Below, in pieces: positions 5,023 to 53,705 of a stretch of DNA of 64,000 nt (the stretch's first letter is position 1; the number at the start of each line of letters is the position of its first letter). Location: NCBI RefSeq assembly GCF_056712565.1, contig NZ_CM160072.1; one strand, 5' to 3'. Both the position numbers and the translations under genes were made by a program. The notes under the pieces are model-generated. The model saw nothing but the letters and a program-made list of their open reading frames with translations, made no database searches and was not told the DNA's origin.

Positions 5023-5038
5023 TGGCACGCAATCTGCA
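5023..5038 (+). promoter_or_regulatory. Sigma54 (-24/-12) promoter of norVW
   Basis: TGGCACGCAATCTGCA: GG and GC elements at canonical spacing, ~48 nt upstream of the norV ATG and downstream of the NorR sites. Confidence 0.85.
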
Positions 5039-10811: not shown

Positions 10812-10916
10812 CAAATTCTCCAGCAATAACAGTTAATGCGCCGATACATTCACAAATCATGCCAGTTTTTAATTTACTGTTATTTAAGGAAATTAAATTC
10901 TGTACTACAGGAAAAA

Positions 10917-10947
10917 CGATGTCATCGACACTAGTGACGATGACATG
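10917..10947 (-). promoter_or_regulatory. Candidate FhlA-type upstream activating sequence for hydN-hypF
   Basis: Inverted repeat CGATGTCATCGACACTAGTGACGATGACATG ~110 bp upstream of hydN, resembling the TGTCGACA-type UAS in the hyc-hyp intergenic region; a weak -24/-12-like element (TGGCATGATTTGTGA) lies at ~10850-10866. Confidence 0.55.
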
Positions 10948-15217: not shown

Positions 15218-15637
15218 TCAAAGAAACCATTCCGGCTTAACGCCAAATCGGGCTGAAAGTGCCTTAATGTGGGATATCGTCAGGGAACGTTGTCCAGATA
15301 AAATCTGACTGACCAGGGATTTAGAGCCGATTTCGTTCTTCAAATCCGCATAGGTCAGATTATGTTGATCAATCAGCGTACGAAGTAACGCCACGCCAAC
15401 CGGCATTGCTGCAACGGCTTTGTCGAACTCTGCAAACTTTTCGTTATTGTTTTCATATTCTGCAATGCGGCTCGCCAGAAAGTCGATAAGTGGATTGGTA
15501 TCATCTTCTTCAATCAAATATTCGACCAGTTCCAGTGCTTCACGATAATCATCTTCTGAGTCACTGCCTCCCAGAAAGGGGACTGCATTGACCAGTTCTC
15601 TTGTTGCTTTAACAGCGCGTGCAGCATTAGCAGTCAT
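15218..15637 (-). CDS. HigA-family antitoxin-like protein with C-terminal XRE-type HTH
   Basis: 139-aa ORF; C-terminal HTH (EIGSKSLVSQILSGQRSLTISHIKALSARFGV) and acidic helical N-domain resemble recalled E. coli HigA (YgjM) at roughly half identity by eye. Lies in a segment between ascB and hycI that I do not recall in K-12. Confidence 0.75.
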   Translation of the reverse strand: MTANAARAVKATRELVNAVPFLGGSDSEDDYREALELVEYLIEEDDTNPLIDFLASRIAEYENNNEKFAEFDKAVAAMPVGVALLRTLIDQHNLTYADLKNEIGSKSLVSQILSGQRSLTISHIKALSARFGVKPEWFL

Positions 15638-15662: not shown

Positions 15663-15848
15663 TCAGACGCTCACTTTTCTAAAATGCCATGTTTGCTCGG
15701 CATCATAAGGCATGGTCAGGAGAGGTTTCAGCACCCGCTTTTGCGCATATTCGCCGTCACTCATTGGCAGATATTCGGTAAAGCTGGTGGCCTGTGCAGG
15801 CAGCACTAAGCTCAATAAAAAAGCGCACATCCCTGTTCTGATGTTCAA
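15663..15848 (-). CDS. Hypothetical small protein with Sec-type signal peptide, co-oriented just upstream of the HigA-like gene
   Basis: 61 codons from TTG (55 from an internal ATG at 15830); predicted signal peptide with AQA cleavage motif; stop lies 25 nt before the HigA-like ATG. No similarity to HigB/RelE recognised. Coding status uncertain. Confidence 0.3.
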   Translation of the reverse strand: MNIRTGMCAFLLSLVLPAQATSFTEYLPMSDGEYAQKRVLKPLLTMPYDAEQTWHFRKVSV

Positions 15849-22541: not shown

Positions 22542-23149
22542 TTAGCCTCTCCACTTTGAGCCTGCTGAAACAAGGTGAGATCGCCAAAGTCCGTGTTAAA
22601 AGTCAGCTCACGCTTACGTTTGCTGACGCGGGCGATATCGGTGTTATCCACCAGATGCAGGGCTTTAGTCGGGCACATCCGCACGCAGGCCGGACCTTGT
22701 TCATCAAAGCTACAAAGGTCACATTTGACGGCGATCGCGCGAATACCTGGCACCCAGTCAAGCAATGTGCTGACACGCGCCGGAGCAGGCGGTGCCGGTG
22801 GCGCTTTCGGGGTATTGGCGTTTGCCGGAATATCCAGCGGACGGCTGCCGGAAAATTCAATTGCGCCAAACGGGCAGGCGATGCCACACAGTTTGCAGCT
22901 TACGCACAAGCTTTCATTCAGCTGCACGGCACCATCAACACGAGTGATGGCGTTAACCGGGCAGACCGTTGCGCAGGGTGCATCTTCACAGTGGTGACAG
23001 AGCTGCGGCGCAGATTCTTTTTCATTTAGCATCACTCTCAGGCGCGGCATTGATTGCAGGCCGTGCTGGCGATGCGTCTCTGAACAGGTAGCCTCACAAG
23101 TGTGGCAGCCGATACAGAGCGTGGAGTCAGCAATTACAAAACGATTCAC
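22538..23149 (-). CDS. hycB: Formate hydrogenlyase Fe-S subunit
   Basis: 203-aa ORF with four ferredoxin-type Cys clusters. Confidence 0.92.
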   Translation of the reverse strand: MNRFVIADSTLCIGCHTCEATCSETHRQHGLQSMPRLRVMLNEKESAPQLCHHCEDAPCATVCPVNAITRVDGAVQLNESLCVSCKLCGIACPFGAIEFSGSRPLDIPANANTPKAPPAPPAPARVSTLLDWVPGIRAIAVKCDLCSFDEQGPACVRMCPTKALHLVDNTDIARVSKRKRELTFNTDFGDLTLFQQAQSGEAK

Positions 23150-23273
23150 CAGGCATTCCTCAGGTGATTGTCATTTTTGACGAAAACATGCCGATGAAAT
23201 GTCATTTTCGACACTCATCGACACGCCCATCCCCAAACAGGCGTAACGCCTGCAAAACGGGCAAAGCCTCAGC

Positions 23274-23735
23274 TCATGCTGCCGGGCTTTGTCCCTTTAC
23301 CAGTTGGCTTAAATTCACCGGCACATTGTTTTCAATGGCGGTGTATAAGCTGTCGTAAACGCCAGCGATTTTTTCGAGATAGTGTTCCAGAACCTGTTCG
23401 CGATCGCGGATGTTGACCTTGCCATCAATCATGCCGTCAATGCTCAGTTGCGCCTGCGCAATCCGCTGTTTGTCTTCACCCTCTTTCGTTTCGACGTAAT
23501 ACTCGATGGTGTGGCTGTTAAAGCCATCCGCCAGGGTGACGTAAATGCGAAAATGTTCAAAAAGGACGAAACAGAGTTCTTTGTCCGGCGCGCAGCTCAT
23601 GGCGTGATGCAGGCGCGCTTTCGATAACGTGATCCCCTGAACCAGCGAATTGCAGTAGATGTGCCACTGGTCCTGTAGGCGACGATGCCGCTGTGCGATG
23701 TAATCGGCTTTCTCGCTTATTTCCCAAATAGTCAT
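23274..23735 (-). CDS. hycA: Formate hydrogenlyase regulatory protein
   Basis: 153-aa ORF matching recalled HycA; first gene of the hyc operon, divergent from hypA. Confidence 0.9.
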   Translation of the reverse strand: MTIWEISEKADYIAQRHRRLQDQWHIYCNSLVQGITLSKARLHHAMSCAPDKELCFVLFEHFRIYVTLADGFNSHTIEYYVETKEGEDKQRIAQAQLSIDGMIDGKVNIRDREQVLEHYLEKIAGVYDSLYTAIENNVPVNLSQLVKGQSPAA

Positions 23736-23770
23736 TGTCAGGTTACCCGTTTAACAGAGATGCCAGCTTT

Positions 23771-23787
23771 AAGCATTTTCTGTGCCA
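23771..23787 (-). promoter_or_regulatory. Sigma54 promoter of the hyc operon
   Basis: Minus-strand TGGCACAGAAAATGCT (-24 GG / -12 GC) ~35 nt upstream of the hycA ATG. Confidence 0.75.
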
Positions 23788-23834
23788 ACTTTTAATTTAT
23801 TGTTATTAAAGCGATTTTTAAGCTAAAGATGAAT

Positions 23835-23874
23835 TTCGTCGCCGTGTCGACGTGTCATTTCGACATCATCGACA
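23835..23874. promoter_or_regulatory. FhlA upstream activating sequences shared by the divergent hyc and hyp promoters
   Basis: TTTCGTCGCCGTGTCGACGTGTCATTTCGACATCATCGACA: repeated TGTCGACA / TCGACA motifs midway between the two sigma54 promoters. Confidence 0.75.
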
Positions 23875-23900
23875 TTATTTACCGCAGGGATAATCAACAC

Positions 23901-23917
23901 TGGCACAATTATTGCTT
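23901..23917 (+). promoter_or_regulatory. Sigma54 promoter of the hyp operon
   Basis: TGGCACAATTATTGCT ~30 nt upstream of the hypA ATG. Confidence 0.8.
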
Positions 23918-23946
23918 GTAGCTGGCAATAGTTAATGGGAGGCGAT

Positions 23947-24297
23947 ATGCACGAAATAACCCTCTGCCAACGGGCACTGGAATTGATCGAACAGCAGGCC
24001 GCAAAACACGGCGCAAAACGCGTAACTGGGGTCTGGCTCAAAATTGGCGCATTTTCTTGTGTCGAAACCAGCTCTCTTGCCTTTTGTTTTGATCTGGTTT
24101 GCCGCGGCAGCGTGGCGGAAGGTTGTAAACTGCACCTCGAAGAACAAGAGGCCGAATGCTGGTGTGAAACATGCCAACAGTATGTGACGCTACTGACCCA
24201 GCGCGTCCGCCGCTGTCCACAGTGTCATGGTGACATGCTACAGATTGTGGCAGACGACGGTTTACAGATTCGGCGGATAGAAATAGACCAGGAGTGA
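23947..24297 (+). CDS. hypA: Hydrogenase nickel-incorporation protein HypA
   Basis: Start at MHEITLCQRA (116 aa); C-terminal zinc-binding CxxC...CxxC. Confidence 0.92.
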   Translation: MHEITLCQRALELIEQQAAKHGAKRVTGVWLKIGAFSCVETSSLAFCFDLVCRGSVAEGCKLHLEEQEAECWCETCQQYVTLLTQRVRRCPQCHGDMLQIVADDGLQIRRIEIDQE

Positions 24298-24300
24298 GCG

Positions 24301-25173
24301 ATGTGTACAACATGCGGTTGCGGTGAAGGCAACCTGTATATCGAGGGTGATGAACATAACCCTCATTCCGCGTTTCGTAGCGCGCCATTTGCCCCGGCGG
24401 CACGCCCGAAGATGAAAATCACCGGCATTAAAGCGCCTGAATTTACCCCCAGCCAGACTGAAGAAGGCGACCTGCATTACGGTCATGGCGAAGCGGGCAC
24501 TCACGCGCCGGGCATGAGCCAGCGTCGGATGCTGGAAGTCGAAATTGACGTGCTGGACAAAAATAACCGTCTGGCTGAACGCAACCGCGCGCACTTTGCT
24601 GCCCGCAAGCAACTGGTGCTCAACCTGGTTTCCAGCCCTGGTTCCGGTAAAACCACCCTGCTGACGGAAACCTTAATGCGCCTGAAAGACAGCGTTCCGT
24701 GCGCAGTTATTGAAGGCGACCAGCAAACCGTGAACGATGCCGCGCGCATTCGTGCTACCGGCACGCCAGCGATTCAGGTGAACACCGGTAAAGGCTGCCA
24801 TCTTGACGCACAGATGATTGCCGACGCCGCGCCGCGCCTGCCACTGGACGATAACGGTATTCTGTTTATCGAAAACGTCGGCAACCTCGTGTGCCCGGCC
24901 AGCTTCGATCTCGGTGAAAAACACAAAGTGGCGGTGCTTTCCGTTACCGAAGGTGAAGACAAACCGCTGAAATATCCGCATATGTTTGCCGCCGCCTCGC
25001 TGATGCTGCTCAACAAAGTTGACCTGCTGCCGTATCTCAACTTTGACGTTGAGAAGTGCATCGCCTGCGCCCGTGAAGTCAATCCAGAAATTGAAATCAT
25101 CCTTATTTCCGCCACCAGCGGCGAAGGGATGGACCAGTGGCTGAACTGGCTGGAGACACAGCGATGTGCATAG
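24301..25173 (+). CDS. hypB: Hydrogenase nickel-incorporation GTPase HypB
   Basis: 290-aa ORF; N-terminal Cys/His-rich metal-binding region and P-loop GSGKTT. Confidence 0.93.
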
Positions 25174-27637: not shown

Positions 27638-29716
27638 ATGTCATATACACCGATGAGTGATCTCGGACAGCAAGGGTTGTTCGACATCACTCGGACACTA
27701 TTGCAGCAGCCCGATCTGGCCTCGCTGTGTGAGGCTCTTTCGCAACTGGTAAAGCGTTCTGCGCTCGCCGACAACGCGGCGATTGTGTTGTGGCAAGCGC
27801 AGACTCAACGTGCGTCTTATTACGCATCGCGTGAAAAAGACACCCCCATTAAATATGAAGACGAAACTGTTCTGGCACACGGTCCGGTACGCAGCATTTT
27901 GTCGCGCCCTGATACGCTGCATTGCAGTTACGAAGAATTTTGTGAAACCTGGCCGCAGCTGGCCACAGGTGGGCTATACCCCAAATTTGGTCACTATTGC
28001 CTGATGCCACTGGCGGCGGAAGGGCATATTTTTGGTGGCTGTGAATTTATTCGTTATGACGATCGCCCCTGGAGCGAAAAAGAGTTCAATCGTCTGCAAA
28101 CATTTACGCAGATCGTTTCTGTCGTCACCGAACAAATCCAGAGCCGCGTCGTTAACAATGTCGACTATGAGTTGTTATGCCGGGAACGCGATAACTTCCG
28201 CATCCTGGTCGCCATCACTAACGCGGTGCTTTCCCGCCTGGATATGGACGAACTGGTCAGCGAAGTCGCCAAAGAAATCCATTACTATTTCGACATTGAC
28301 GATATCAGCATCGTCTTACGCAGCCACCGTAAAAACAAACTCAACATCTACTCCACTCACTATCTTGATAAACAGCATCCCGCTCACGAACAGAGCGAAG
28401 TCGATGAAGCCGGACCCCTCACCGAACGCGTCTTCAAAAGTAAAGAGATGCTGTTGATTAATCTCCACGAGCGGGACGATTTAGCCCCCTATGAACGCAT
28501 GTTGTTCAACACCTGGGGCAACCAGATTCAAACCTTGTGCCTGTTACCGCTGATGTCTGGCGACACTATGCTGGGCGTGCTGAAACTGGCGCAATGCGAA
28601 GAGAAAGTCTTTACCACTACCAATCTGAATTTACTGCGCCAGATTGCCGAACGTGTGGCAATCGCTGTCGATAACGCCCTCGCCTATCAGGAAATTCATC
28701 GTCTGAAAGAACGGCTGGTTGATGAAAACCTCGCCCTGACCGAGCAGCTCAACAATGTTGATAGTGAATTTGGCGAGATTATTGGCCGCAGCGAAGCCAT
28801 GTACAGCGTACTTAAACAAGTGGAAATGGTGGCGCAAAGTGACAGTACCGTTCTGATCCTCGGTGAAACTGGTACAGGTAAAGAGCTGATTGCCCGCGCG
28901 ATCCATAATCTCAGTGGGCGTAATAATCGCCGCATGGTCAAAATGAACTGCGCGGCGATGCCTGCCGGATTGCTGGAAAGCGATCTATTTGGTCATGAGC
29001 GTGGGGCTTTTACCGGTGCCAGCGCTCAGCGCATTGGTCGTTTTGAACTGGCGGATAAAAGCTCACTATTCCTCGATGAAGTGGGCGATATGCCGCTGGA
29101 GTTACAGCCGAAGTTGCTGCGTGTATTACAGGAACAGGAGTTTGAACGTCTCGGCAGCAACAAAATCATTCAGACGGACGTACGTTTAATTGCCGCGACT
29201 AACCGCGATCTGAAAAAAATGGTCGCCGACCGAGAGTTCCGTAGCGATCTCTATTACCGCCTGAACGTATTCCCGATCCACCTGCCGCCACTACGCGAGC
29301 GTCCGGAAGATATTCCGCTGCTGGCGAAAGCCTTTACCTTCAAAATTGCCCGTCGTCTGGGGCGCAATATCGACAGCATTCCTGCCGAGACGCTGCGCAT
29401 CCTGAGCAACATGGAATGGCCGGGCAACGTGCGTGAGCTGGAAAACGTCATCGAGCGCGCGGTATTGCTAACACGCGGCAACGTGCTGCAGCTGTCATTG
29501 CCAGATATTGCTTTACCAGAACCTGAAACGCCGCCTGCCGCAACGGTTGTCGCCCAGGAGGGCGAAGATGAATATCAGTTGATTGTTCGCGTGCTGAAAG
29601 AAACAAACGGCGTGGTTGCCGGGCCTAAAGGCGCTGCGCAACTTCTGGGGCTGAAACGCACGACTCTGCTGTCACGAATGAAGCGACTGGGAATTGATAA
29701 ATCGGCATTGATTTAA
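27638..29716 (+). CDS. fhlA: Formate hydrogenlyase transcriptional activator (sigma54-dependent, GAF-AAA+-HTH)
   Basis: Start at MSYTPMSDLGQQ (692 aa) rather than the ORF-track 704 aa; AAA+ sigma54-interaction motifs ([14 protein letters not shown]). Confidence 0.92.
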   Translation: MSYTPMSDLGQQGLFDITRTLLQQPDLASLCEALSQLVKRSALADNAAIVLWQAQTQRASYYASREKDTPIKYEDETVLAHGPVRSILSRPDTLHCSYEEFCETWPQLATGGLYPKFGHYCLMPLAAEGHIFGGCEFIRYDDRPWSEKEFNRLQTFTQIVSVVTEQIQSRVVNNVDYELLCRERDNFRILVAITNAVLSRLDMDELVSEVAKEIHYYFDIDDISIVLRSHRKNKLNIYSTHYLDKQHPAHEQSEVDEAGPLTERVFKSKEMLLINLHERDDLAPYERMLFNTWGNQIQTLCLLPLMSGDTMLGVLKLAQCEEKVFTTTNLNLLRQIAERVAIAVDNALAYQEIHRLKERLVDENLALTEQLNNVDSEFGEIIGRSEAMYSVLKQVEMVAQSDSTVLILGETGTGKELIARAIHNLSGRNNRRMVKMNCAAMPAGLLESDLFGHERGAFTGASAQRIGRFELADKSSLFLDEVGDMPLELQPKLLRVLQEQEFERLGSNKIIQTDVRLIAATNRDLKKMVADREFRSDLYYRLNVFPIHLPPLRERPEDIPLLAKAFTFKIARRLGRNIDSIPAETLRILSNMEWPGNVRELENVIERAVLLTRGNVLQLSLPDIALPEPETPPAATVVAQEGEDEYQLIVRVLKETNGVVAGPKGAAQLLGLKRTTLLSRMKRLGIDKSALI

Positions 29717-29760: not shown

Positions 29761-30189
29761 ATGGCAGTTTCAGCAAGAAATCAATTAACCGGAACAGTTA
29801 GCGCAGTAGCAATGGGCGCGGTGAATGATGAAGTAGAACTGACGCTGGCAGGTGGTGCAAAGCTGGTGGCAATTGTGACTCACAGCAGCCAGCAAGCGCT
29901 GGGTCTGGCGAAAGGGAAAGAAGCGATTGCCCTGATTAAAGCCCCGTGGGTCACGCTGGCAACGGAAGACTGTGGACTGAAATTCTCTGCTCGCAACCAG
30001 TTTGCTGGCAGCGTGTCGACAATCACCGAAGGCGCAGTGAACGCCACTGTCCATATCAAAACGGATGCGGGTTTTGAAATTGTGGCAGTGGTAACAAATG
30101 AAAGTCAGGATGAAATGAAACTCACCACTGGCTCGCGCGTTATTGCATTGATCAAAGCATCAGCCATCCTGATTGCCACCAAAGCGTAA
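29761..30189 (+). CDS. Two-domain Mop/TOBE molbindin-like protein (putative molybdate/tungstate-binding)
   Basis: Start at MAVSARNQLTG, 8 nt downstream of an AAGGAGG Shine-Dalgarno; two tandem ~70-aa repeats each beginning SARNQ(L/F)(T/A)G(T/S)V, characteristic of TOBE/Mop domains. Not recalled between fhlA and ygbA in K-12. Confidence 0.7.
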   Translation: MAVSARNQLTGTVSAVAMGAVNDEVELTLAGGAKLVAIVTHSSQQALGLAKGKEAIALIKAPWVTLATEDCGLKFSARNQFAGSVSTITEGAVNATVHIKTDAGFEIVAVVTNESQDEMKLTTGSRVIALIKASAILIATKA

Positions 30190-53552: not shown

Positions 53553-53705
53553 CTACTTCTTCGATTCGTAAGCGAGAACTGCCTTAAACTCCATACCACG
53601 TTCTCTGATACTCAACTCACACAACGAGTCGCCTACCATCAACGTGAATCCCAGTACTGTACAACACAGTACGATGATTGCCACAAGGGCATATTTTGTC
53701 AGCAT
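53553..53705 (-). CDS. Hok/Gef-family type I toxin (HokE-like small membrane peptide)
   Basis: 50-codon [53 protein letters not shown]: hydrophobic N-terminal helix, conserved Cys in SLCEL, C-terminal AYE motif; GGAGG Shine-Dalgarno 7 nt upstream; GC-rich hairpin just 3' of the stop. Close by eye to recalled chromosomal HokE. Confidence 0.8.

Follow-up and report, generated by a model that had tools for sequence, protein, structure and literature searches.

Genes and divergent sigma-54 promoters of the hyc–hyp locus

The window analysed here, a 64 kb stretch of Escherichia coli DNA, carries norVW, hypF-hydN (− strand), ascG, ascFB, hycIHGFEDCBA (−), hypABCDE-fhlA (+), ygbA and mutS, as annotated in RefSeq for one identical genome and in the order found in K-12. 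A 1.2 kb query around the hycA–hypA spacer was 100% identical to ATCC 11775 and to several extra-intestinal pathogenic strains, and most of the query was matched in 5,423 of the 5,426 complete E. coli genomes. The first gene of the hyc operon, hycA (23274–23735, − strand; Pfam HycA_repressor, E = 2e-90, and RefSeq annotation), encodes the FhlA antagonist, a full-length protein of the HycA_repressor family. Facing away from it, hypA (23947–24297, + strand; RefSeq annotation of 100%-identical genomes) is the first gene of the hypABCDE-fhlA operon. This operon ends with fhlA (27638–29716, + strand), which encodes the formate-responsive enhancer-binding protein and was identified by annotation and by its Pfam domains (GAF, Sigma54_activat, AAA_lid_14 and HTH_8). 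Through this position fhlA forms a positive feedback loop, and with the activator gene ending the hyp operon and the antagonist gene heading the hyc operon, the locus has a known feedback design. The region that the first-pass annotation had singled out, 23736–23946, is exactly the hycA–hypA spacer, bounded by hycA on one side and by the hypA start at 23947 on the other.

The hyc–hyp region of K-12 is the same locus, with the same gene order and the same ChIP-seq sigma-54 motifs. Within the spacer, 208 of 211 bases are identical to K-12 MG1655. The three single-base differences, at 23780, 23812 and 23880, spare every conserved motif base, the GG/GC dinucleotides and the enhancer core, with 23780 lying among the unspecified bases between −24 and −12 of the hyc element. 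The hycA–hycB spacer is without any difference from MG1655, and five differences upstream of hydN leave the palindrome and the promoter there untouched. Because the spacer motifs are the same as in K-12, experiments done on K-12 carry over directly. Elsewhere in the cluster there are two small insertions that are absent from K-12. An Rfam scan of the whole window gave no match in or near the hycA–hypA region, and a scan of 23100–24400 for sigma-70 promoters and terminators gave nothing exceeding chance.

The hyc–hyp intergenic region is a textbook sigma-54 control region, established by genetic and biochemical mapping in the 1990s and recovered since then in every genome-wide sigma-54 study. 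We scored both strands of the window with an RpoN matrix built from 186 promoters (PMC7658346, Table 2). The highest score in the 64 kb belonged to the −24/−12 element of the hyp operon, TGGCACAATTATTGCT (23901–23916, + strand; 19.05 bits), followed by the norV promoter and, third, by the element of the hyc operon, TGGCACAGAAAATGCT (23772–23787, − strand; 15.6 bits). The hyp element fits TGGCAC-N5-TTGCW exactly, with GG and GC 10 bp apart, and the hyc element reads TGGCAC-N5-ATGCT. The strict consensus TGGCACNNNNNTTGCW matched the hyp element alone in the window, with at least one match in 15% of shuffles; it misses both hyc and hydN and is too strict, which is why the published matrix was used instead. 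The first-pass annotation had looked to a matrix scan against shuffled sequence to check these sites. The scan ranked them first and third, but enrichment by itself was marginal: the window holds 3 matches of at least 15 bits versus 1.25 expected, and 13.5% of dinucleotide-preserving shuffles also reach 3. Since this count is not significant alone, the argument rests on position and conservation.

To follow the region across the Enterobacteriaceae, we used a HycA alignment to fetch 80 loci from one-genome-per-species contigs, and hycA was located in 79 of them. The arrangement of hycB, hycA and divergent hypA was found in all 79, with hycA–hypA spacers of 188–223 bp and hycA–hycB spacers of 67–146 bp. 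Both −24/−12 elements were kept in every one of these 79 loci; counted from the hycA ATG, they stand at +35 to +38 and at +143 to +168. In the window the two elements are divergent, lie 129 bp apart in the 211-bp spacer and stand each ~30–37 bp from its start codon. A divergent pair with fitting gene distances, retained in 79/79 loci, is more than chance would give.

Published data on K-12 point the same way. Sigma-54 ChIP-seq lists these motifs for hydN, hycA and hypA, each marked as a confirmed promoter (PMC4591121); the hyp element is identical to site OS28 of that study, and the hyc element differs from OS27 by one spacer base. Genomic SELEX of sigma-54 recovers the same spacers (PMC8743547). 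We placed the transcription starts of hyc, hyp and hydN from motif positions, at ~23761, ~23927 and ~10838, and these predicted starts fit the ChIP-seq leader lengths of 26, 20 and 27 (PMC4591121). Divergent NtrA (sigma-54)-dependent promoters at K-12 hyc–hyp are credited to Lutz, Bohm, Beier and Bock 1990 in PMC3844500. The two divergent sigma-54 promoters proposed for hyc and hyp from the letters alone were therefore confirmed in their exact positions, by their retention in 79/79 species and by their match to K-12 ChIP-seq sites.

Elsewhere in the window, the second-best RpoN match (5023–5038), the norV −24/−12 element, lies in the norR-norVW divergent region. Like hyc–hyp, it pairs a sigma-54 promoter with IHF and with enhancer sites, upstream, for an activator of the GAF-domain type (PMC2831303). 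It is unlike hyc–hyp in that only one of its two divergent promoters is sigma-54-dependent and in that the activator is NorR, with GT-N7-AC sites, and not FhlA.

We also considered a sigma-54-like motif inside hycA (23651–23666) as a conserved promoter. It is probably incidental, built from the codons of the conserved W24-H-I-Y-C28, and its score falls to 4–10 bits in many genera (residue 25 Arg or Cys codon TGT). That it might be a working internal promoter in Escherichia and Klebsiella, yielding hycB–I without the HycA antagonist, is a weaker possibility.

FhlA-type elements in the hycA–hypA and hycA–hycB spacers

FhlA sites at hyc–hyp were reportedly described by Schlensog and colleagues in 1994 and by Leonhartsberger and colleagues in 2000. 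We scored the window with an FhlA matrix of the TGWC-N6-GWCA type built from 13 sites (PMC7658346). Two matches reached at least 16 bits versus 0.035 expected, and none of 200 shuffles reached 2, although these scores carry some circularity, since the sites found here are among the K-12 sites from which the matrix was made. One of the two (16.2 bits, 23861–23874) lies in the central hycA–hypA spacer and is only second-best. The best match of the window (17.5 bits, 23200–23213, TGTCATTTTCGACA) lies not there but in the hycA–hycB spacer, which holds a further match at 23169–23182 (TGTCATTTTTGACG).

The central element, a putative FhlA-type upstream activating sequence, occupies 23844–23877 (GTGTCGAC GTGTCATTTCGACA TCATCGACA TTA). 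It has three TCGACA/TGTCGA hexamers at 23845–23874; no other triple cluster of this kind occurs in the window, and only 2.7% of shuffles contain one. The element also has the direct repeats TCGACATCA/TCGACATTA and no long palindrome. The first-pass annotation had described TGTCGACA-type repeats between the promoters. Repeats of this general character do exist, as the hexamer cluster and the direct repeats, but the literal octamer is missing from the spacer, where TGTCGACG stands at 23845–23852. Five copies of the 9-mer TCATCGACA are present in the window, where 0.48 would be expected, a tenfold excess; none of 100 shuffles reached five. Three of these copies lie upstream of hydN, in the hycA–hycB spacer and in the hycA–hypA spacer. 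The idealised 16-mer consensus CATTTCGTACGAAATG, given as that of Leonhartsberger 2000 in PMC4987338, had no match at up to 3 mismatches anywhere in the window, its half-site CATTTCG alone being present at 23856–23862. As CATTTCGTACGAAATG is an idealised palindrome, its missing match says little about natural sites. With the matrix match, the hexamer cluster and a conserved core, the claim that an FhlA-type activating sequence lies between the promoters is well supported by the sequence.

Between the central element and the hyp −24 element there are 26 bp, and the central element differs in its distance to the two promoters. From the predicted hyc start it lies at −83 to −116, within the ~80–130 bp norm, and an IHF-like site stands between; from the predicted hyp start it lies at only −50 to −83, which falls short of that norm. 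The IHF-like site TAACAATAAATTA (23793–23805, − strand), between the hyc promoter and the central element, has one mismatch to the consensus WATCAANNNNTTR. With at most one mismatch, this consensus was found between the hyc promoter and the core in 56 of 77 species, 24 of them with a perfect minus-strand site, and the site shows partial column conservation in the spacer alignment. IHF activates both hyc and hyp (PMC2636881).

Alignment of the hycA–hypA spacers showed a small number of conserved blocks: the two −24/−12 elements, a core GAC(R)TGTCATTTCG(W)CA...TCG(W)CA at 23849–23875, part of the A/T-rich stretch 23790–23806 and two ribosome-binding regions. The remainder varies freely. FhlA matrix scores fall quickly in more distant genera, where conservation is visible by alignment only; because the matrix degrades outside close relatives, we used alignment-based footprints. 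The central core GTCATTTCG is present in 77 of 79 species, and its distances to both promoters are quantised at 11 bp. On the hyc side, the −24 element lies 45–46, 56–59 or 66–68 bp from the core (77 species). The steps equal one helical turn, in keeping with looping over an IHF bend that depends on the face of the helix. Towards hyp, the classes are 45–47, 56–58 and 69 bp (77 species), and the 11 bp by which Klebsiella and Kluyvera are longer correspond to an added CGTCATCGACA-type unit, a gained half-site.

The second FhlA-type module, in the hycA–hycB spacer, had been overlooked in the earlier reading and belongs to the hyc–hyp control system. It spans 23169–23223 and consists of TGTCATTTTTGACG, 17 nt and then TGTCATTTTCGACAC TCATCGACA, forming a 13-nt direct repeat with 31-nt spacing. 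The same module is recognisable in both spacers, as TGTCATTT-CGACA-TCATCGACA in the central element and as TGTCATTTTCGACACTCATCGACA in the hycA–hycB spacer, which has an extra copy 31 bp upstream. A search with the pattern TGTCATTTYCGACA at 2 mismatches recovered the hycA–hycB copies only (3 versus 0.96 expected, not significant); it misses the central copy because of an indel there, which an ungapped search does not see.

Across the family this module is better conserved in the comparative alignment than the central element and the promoter elements. Its GTCATTTTTGACG block (23170–23182) is at least 95% conserved across 80 aligned spacer sequences, and even spacers as short as 67 bp retain the TCGACAC..TCGACAC arrangement. 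It is the best conserved non-coding element among those compared, the hydN elements having been compared in 8 genera only. The hyc transcription unit itself contains the module, 20–75 bp upstream of hycB and with a conserved position relative to that gene, and the distance to the hycB start codon is too short for any promoter. Measured from the predicted starts, it stands at −704 to −758 for hyp and at +538 to +592 for hyc. Directly after the hycA stop there is a hairpin on the minus strand (CAGGCG-TTA-CGCCTG followed by TTTGGGG, ~23239–23253), which is found in Escherichia, Salmonella and Citrobacter and is absent in genera with a 67–83 bp spacer; the FhlA-type module is always kept.

The hydN upstream region and the formate regulon

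A third set of related features precedes hydN. The sigma-54 element of the hydN-hypF operon, TGGCATGATTTGTGAA (10849–10864, − strand; predicted start ~10838), scores 11.2 bits and ranks 17th in the window. It has the GG but meets the consensus weakly, the low rank being due to a −12 that reads GA and not GC. It is nevertheless identical to the K-12 ChIP-seq site OS26 (PMC4591121). Further upstream, at −81 to −108 from the predicted start and so within the ~80–130 bp norm, lies a palindrome, ATGTCATCGACACT/AGTGACGATGACAT (10919–10946), with 14-nt arms that are 93% complementary. It includes the 9-mer TCATCGACA, common to both hyc modules, and shares with them TGTCA and TCGACA/TCGTCA half-sites in another arrangement. 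The palindrome is probably an FhlA site; it was not among the top 25 matches to the FhlA 14-mer matrix in the window. The inverted repeat that had been noted here at 10917–10947, as similar to that between hyc and hyp, is thus a real palindrome with shared half-sites, but the likeness does not extend to its architecture, as the central element is made of direct repeats.

We traced HydN relatives to contigs of seven other genera and compared the eight sequences. The motif TGTCATCGTCAC-N3-TGWCGATGACA is also found upstream of hydN in Citrobacter, Klebsiella, Enterobacter, Salmonella, Leclercia, Phytobacter and Pectobacterium. An A/T-rich IHF-like tract, which matches the IHF consensus perfectly in Klebsiella and in Enterobacter, is present in all eight sequences, and a TGGCAYG-N4-TRTGHA element lies 51–61 bp before the hydN ATG in the 8 genera. 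These features are kept whether the upstream gene resembles ascG or, as in other genera, is unrelated to it, and they are also kept in Leclercia, Phytobacter and Pectobacterium, where fdhF follows hydN instead of hypF.

A sigma-54/FhlA promoter of hydN-hypF is attributed to Maier, Binder and Bock 1996 in PMC3844500. The hydN-hypF operon is like hyc in belonging to the same regulon, in its layout of enhancer, A/T-rich IHF-like tract and −24/−12 element and in the shared 9-mer TCATCGACA. It is unlike hyc–hyp in having a clean palindrome in place of direct repeats, a −12 of GA and a score of 11.2 versus 15.6–19.1 bits. In Salmonella, ChIP-chip and arrays found the hydN, hyc and hyp operons to be sigma-54-bound and rpoN-dependent, and they were assigned to FhlA (PMC3844500; PMC4987338); secondary sources also state that FhlA activates fdhF, hyc and hyp. 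The K-12 ChIP-seq data (PMC4591121), the Salmonella assignment (PMC3844500) and the comparative conservation together uphold the proposal of one formate regulon read out over three operons in this window.

Assignment of enhancers to the hyc and hyp promoters

The control region between hyc and hyp is already known; it is real and had been correctly located and named. We identify it, with high confidence, as the classical region of divergent control in the E. coli formate regulon, and we are less sure of how the enhancers are divided between the two promoters. The first-pass annotation had the central FhlA sites shared by both promoters. We found that the central element has canonical geometry for hyc only and that a second, better conserved module lies at 23169–23223. 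Schlensog, Lutz and Bock are said to have found FhlA footprints in 1994 in both the hyc–hyp spacer and the hycA–hycB spacer, the latter activating hyp. From the central geometry, the second module and this reported assignment, the sharing of the central sites is unproven and probably wrong. A full-text literature search found no statement on the position of the hyp enhancer, the primary papers being in subscription journals. We consider it likely that hyc and hyp have separate enhancers, the central element for hyc and the hycA–hycB module for hyp. The module would then be a probable remote enhancer for hyp, as suggested by its geometry and by the assignment attributed to Schlensog and colleagues. 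At glnAp2, NtrC bound to distant enhancers contacts closed-complex polymerase via DNA looping, and by analogy such looping is the model that would be needed if the hycA–hycB module activates hyp from ~700 bp. That system differs in its activator and its signal, and here the putative remote enhancer lies inside the divergently transcribed operon.

The alternative that fares best is that the one central FhlA cluster activates both hyc and hyp, with no other site needed. It is attractive in that the cluster is located between both promoters and enhancer-binding proteins work in either orientation, but on the hyp side only 26 bp separate the cluster from the −24 element, with no IHF-like site between and no room for a loop. 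A position of −50 to −83 is also much nearer than is usual for an enhancer-binding protein that loops onto sigma-54 polymerase. The core-to-hyp classes of 45–47, 56–58 and 69 bp could mean a phase constraint, and such quantised spacing is compatible with some coupling of the central site to hyp; however, these 11-bp classes coincide with half-site gain, which explains them equally well. A single shared cluster would moreover leave aside the better conserved hycA–hycB copy, which exists without a promoter of its own downstream, and it runs against the reported assignment of the remote site to hyp. We therefore regard activation of both operons by the central cluster alone as unlikely, while the central site may make some contribution to hyp.

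Somewhat less probable still is that the hycA–hycB module acts on hyc and not on hyp: it might be a downstream enhancer, or it might set the ratio of hycA to hycB–I expression by working as an FhlA roadblock or attenuator. Its conserved place inside the hyc transcription unit, just upstream of hycB, would suit such a role, and the hairpin after the hycA stop stands next to it in Escherichia, Salmonella and Citrobacter. Against this, the hairpin is missing in the genera with 67–83 bp spacers, where the module is always retained, the sequence features do not separate a roadblock from an enhancer, and the work attributed to Schlensog and colleagues assigns the module to hyp. We also give slim odds, slightly below these, to a central cluster that is truly bidirectional, held in phase to both promoters and joined with the hycA–hycB module in one looped FhlA assembly that would fire hyc and hyp together; if so, the 11-bp classes on both sides would reflect selection. 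The reading that an A/T-rich spacer has produced these motifs by chance, and that they have no regulatory role, could draw on three sigma-54 matches of at least 15 bits in 13.5% of shuffles and a strict-consensus match in 15%, but it is effectively refuted by sites kept in 79/79 species amid otherwise divergent spacers, with correct promoter orientation and spacing, by published sigma-54 ChIP on the same sequences and by the enriched 9-mer and hexamer clusters.

Under the preferred reading, with separate enhancers for the two operons, sigma-54 RNA polymerase would wait in closed complex at two back-to-back −24/−12 promoters, the hyc promoter reading leftwards into hycABCDEFGHI and the hyp promoter rightwards into hypABCDE-fhlA. 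Formate-loaded FhlA would bind the clusters of TGTCA/TCGACA-type half-sites, oligomerise and open the promoter complex by ATP hydrolysis. For hyc, the central cluster at ~23844–23877 would be the enhancer, and an IHF bend at ~23793–23825 would bring FhlA to the polymerase. For hyp, the module at 23169–23223, ~700 bp upstream, would most likely be the enhancer, acting via long-range looping, and hydN-hypF would have its own palindromic FhlA site, IHF-like tract and weak sigma-54 promoter. In this model the motifs, positions, conservation and phasing come from the present analysis, and sigma-54 occupancy and the dependence on FhlA, formate and IHF come from the literature, while the pairing of hyp with its enhancer is inferred.

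The comparison has some value as a calibration, in that a reading of the raw sequence gave real elements at exact coordinates, over-read a shared layout and overlooked the remote module. For the biology of the family it makes a small descriptive addition: where the spacing between promoter and enhancer differs among ~80 species of Enterobacteriaceae, it does so by whole helical turns only.

A sigma-54-like motif within hycA and the norV promoter

The second-best match to the RpoN matrix (PMC7658346) anywhere in the window was the norV sigma-54 promoter (TGGCACGCAATCTGCA, 5023–5038, (+) strand). This brings to four the number of known sigma-54 promoters in the window, and their activators are two different GAF-domain proteins, NorR and FhlA. 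Ranking fourth over the whole window was a sigma-54-like motif within hycA itself (TGGCACATCTACTGCA, 23651–23666, (−) strand), which has the same orientation as the gene and, at 15.0 bits, scores roughly the same as the real hyc promoter. This motif is made up of hycA codons W24-H-I-Y-C28-N. We found that it scores 13–16 bits in Escherichia and several Klebsiella/Raoultella species, and 4–10 bits in many other genera. The K-12 ChIP-seq study of sigma-54 (PMC4591121) names hycA just once in its main text and does not list this motif there.

Inverted repeats at the hyp promoter and behind hycA

At the hyp promoter, an inverted repeat (AATTATTGC/GCAATAGTT, 23907–23933) runs across the −12 element into the start of the inferred hypA leader. 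Escherichia retains its second arm (GGCAAT), and partial retention is seen in Salmonella, Citrobacter and Enterobacter. Within the hyc operon, the hycA-hycB spacer contains a short G+C hairpin on the minus strand (CAGGCG-TTA-CGCCTG, followed by TTTGGGG; 23239–23253), immediately 3′ of the hycA stop codon. The longer version of this spacer, which carries the hairpin, occurs in Escherichia, Salmonella and Citrobacter (124–146 bp); genera with a spacer of 67–83 bp lack it. The hairpin might set the ratio of hycA to hycB, acting either as a partial terminator or on RNA stability.

Additional genes and a sok RNA match

Between ascB and hycI, where K-12 MG1655 has a gap of merely 158 bp, the window has two (−) strand ORFs, one encoding a 139-aa helix-turn-helix (HTH_3) protein (15218–15637) and the other a small hypothetical protein (about 15663–15848). 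The two ORFs form a strain-specific insertion located where the hyc operon ends. Immediately downstream of fhlA lies a (+) strand gene for a 142-aa protein with two TOBE domains of the molybdate-binding type (29761–30189), which is absent from K-12, where fhlA is followed by ygbA. Its location 3′ of fhlA is suggestive, because a molybdate dependence of hyc expression, mediated by ModE, has been reported (PMC2636881). Distant from the hycA-hypA region, the (−) strand at 53690–53847 matches the Rfam model of the sok antitoxin RNA (RF01794) over its full length. The match scores 112 bits, where the gathering score is 59, and points to a chromosomal toxin-antitoxin locus of the hok/sok type.

The gene downstream of hydN in other genera

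In Leclercia, Phytobacter and Pectobacterium, the gene following hydN is not hypF but fdhF, encoding a 716-aa molybdopterin enzyme. Despite this replacement, the upstream palindrome and the sigma-54 element of hydN are retained in all three, such that hydN and a formate dehydrogenase gene would both be driven from one FhlA-controlled promoter in these genera.
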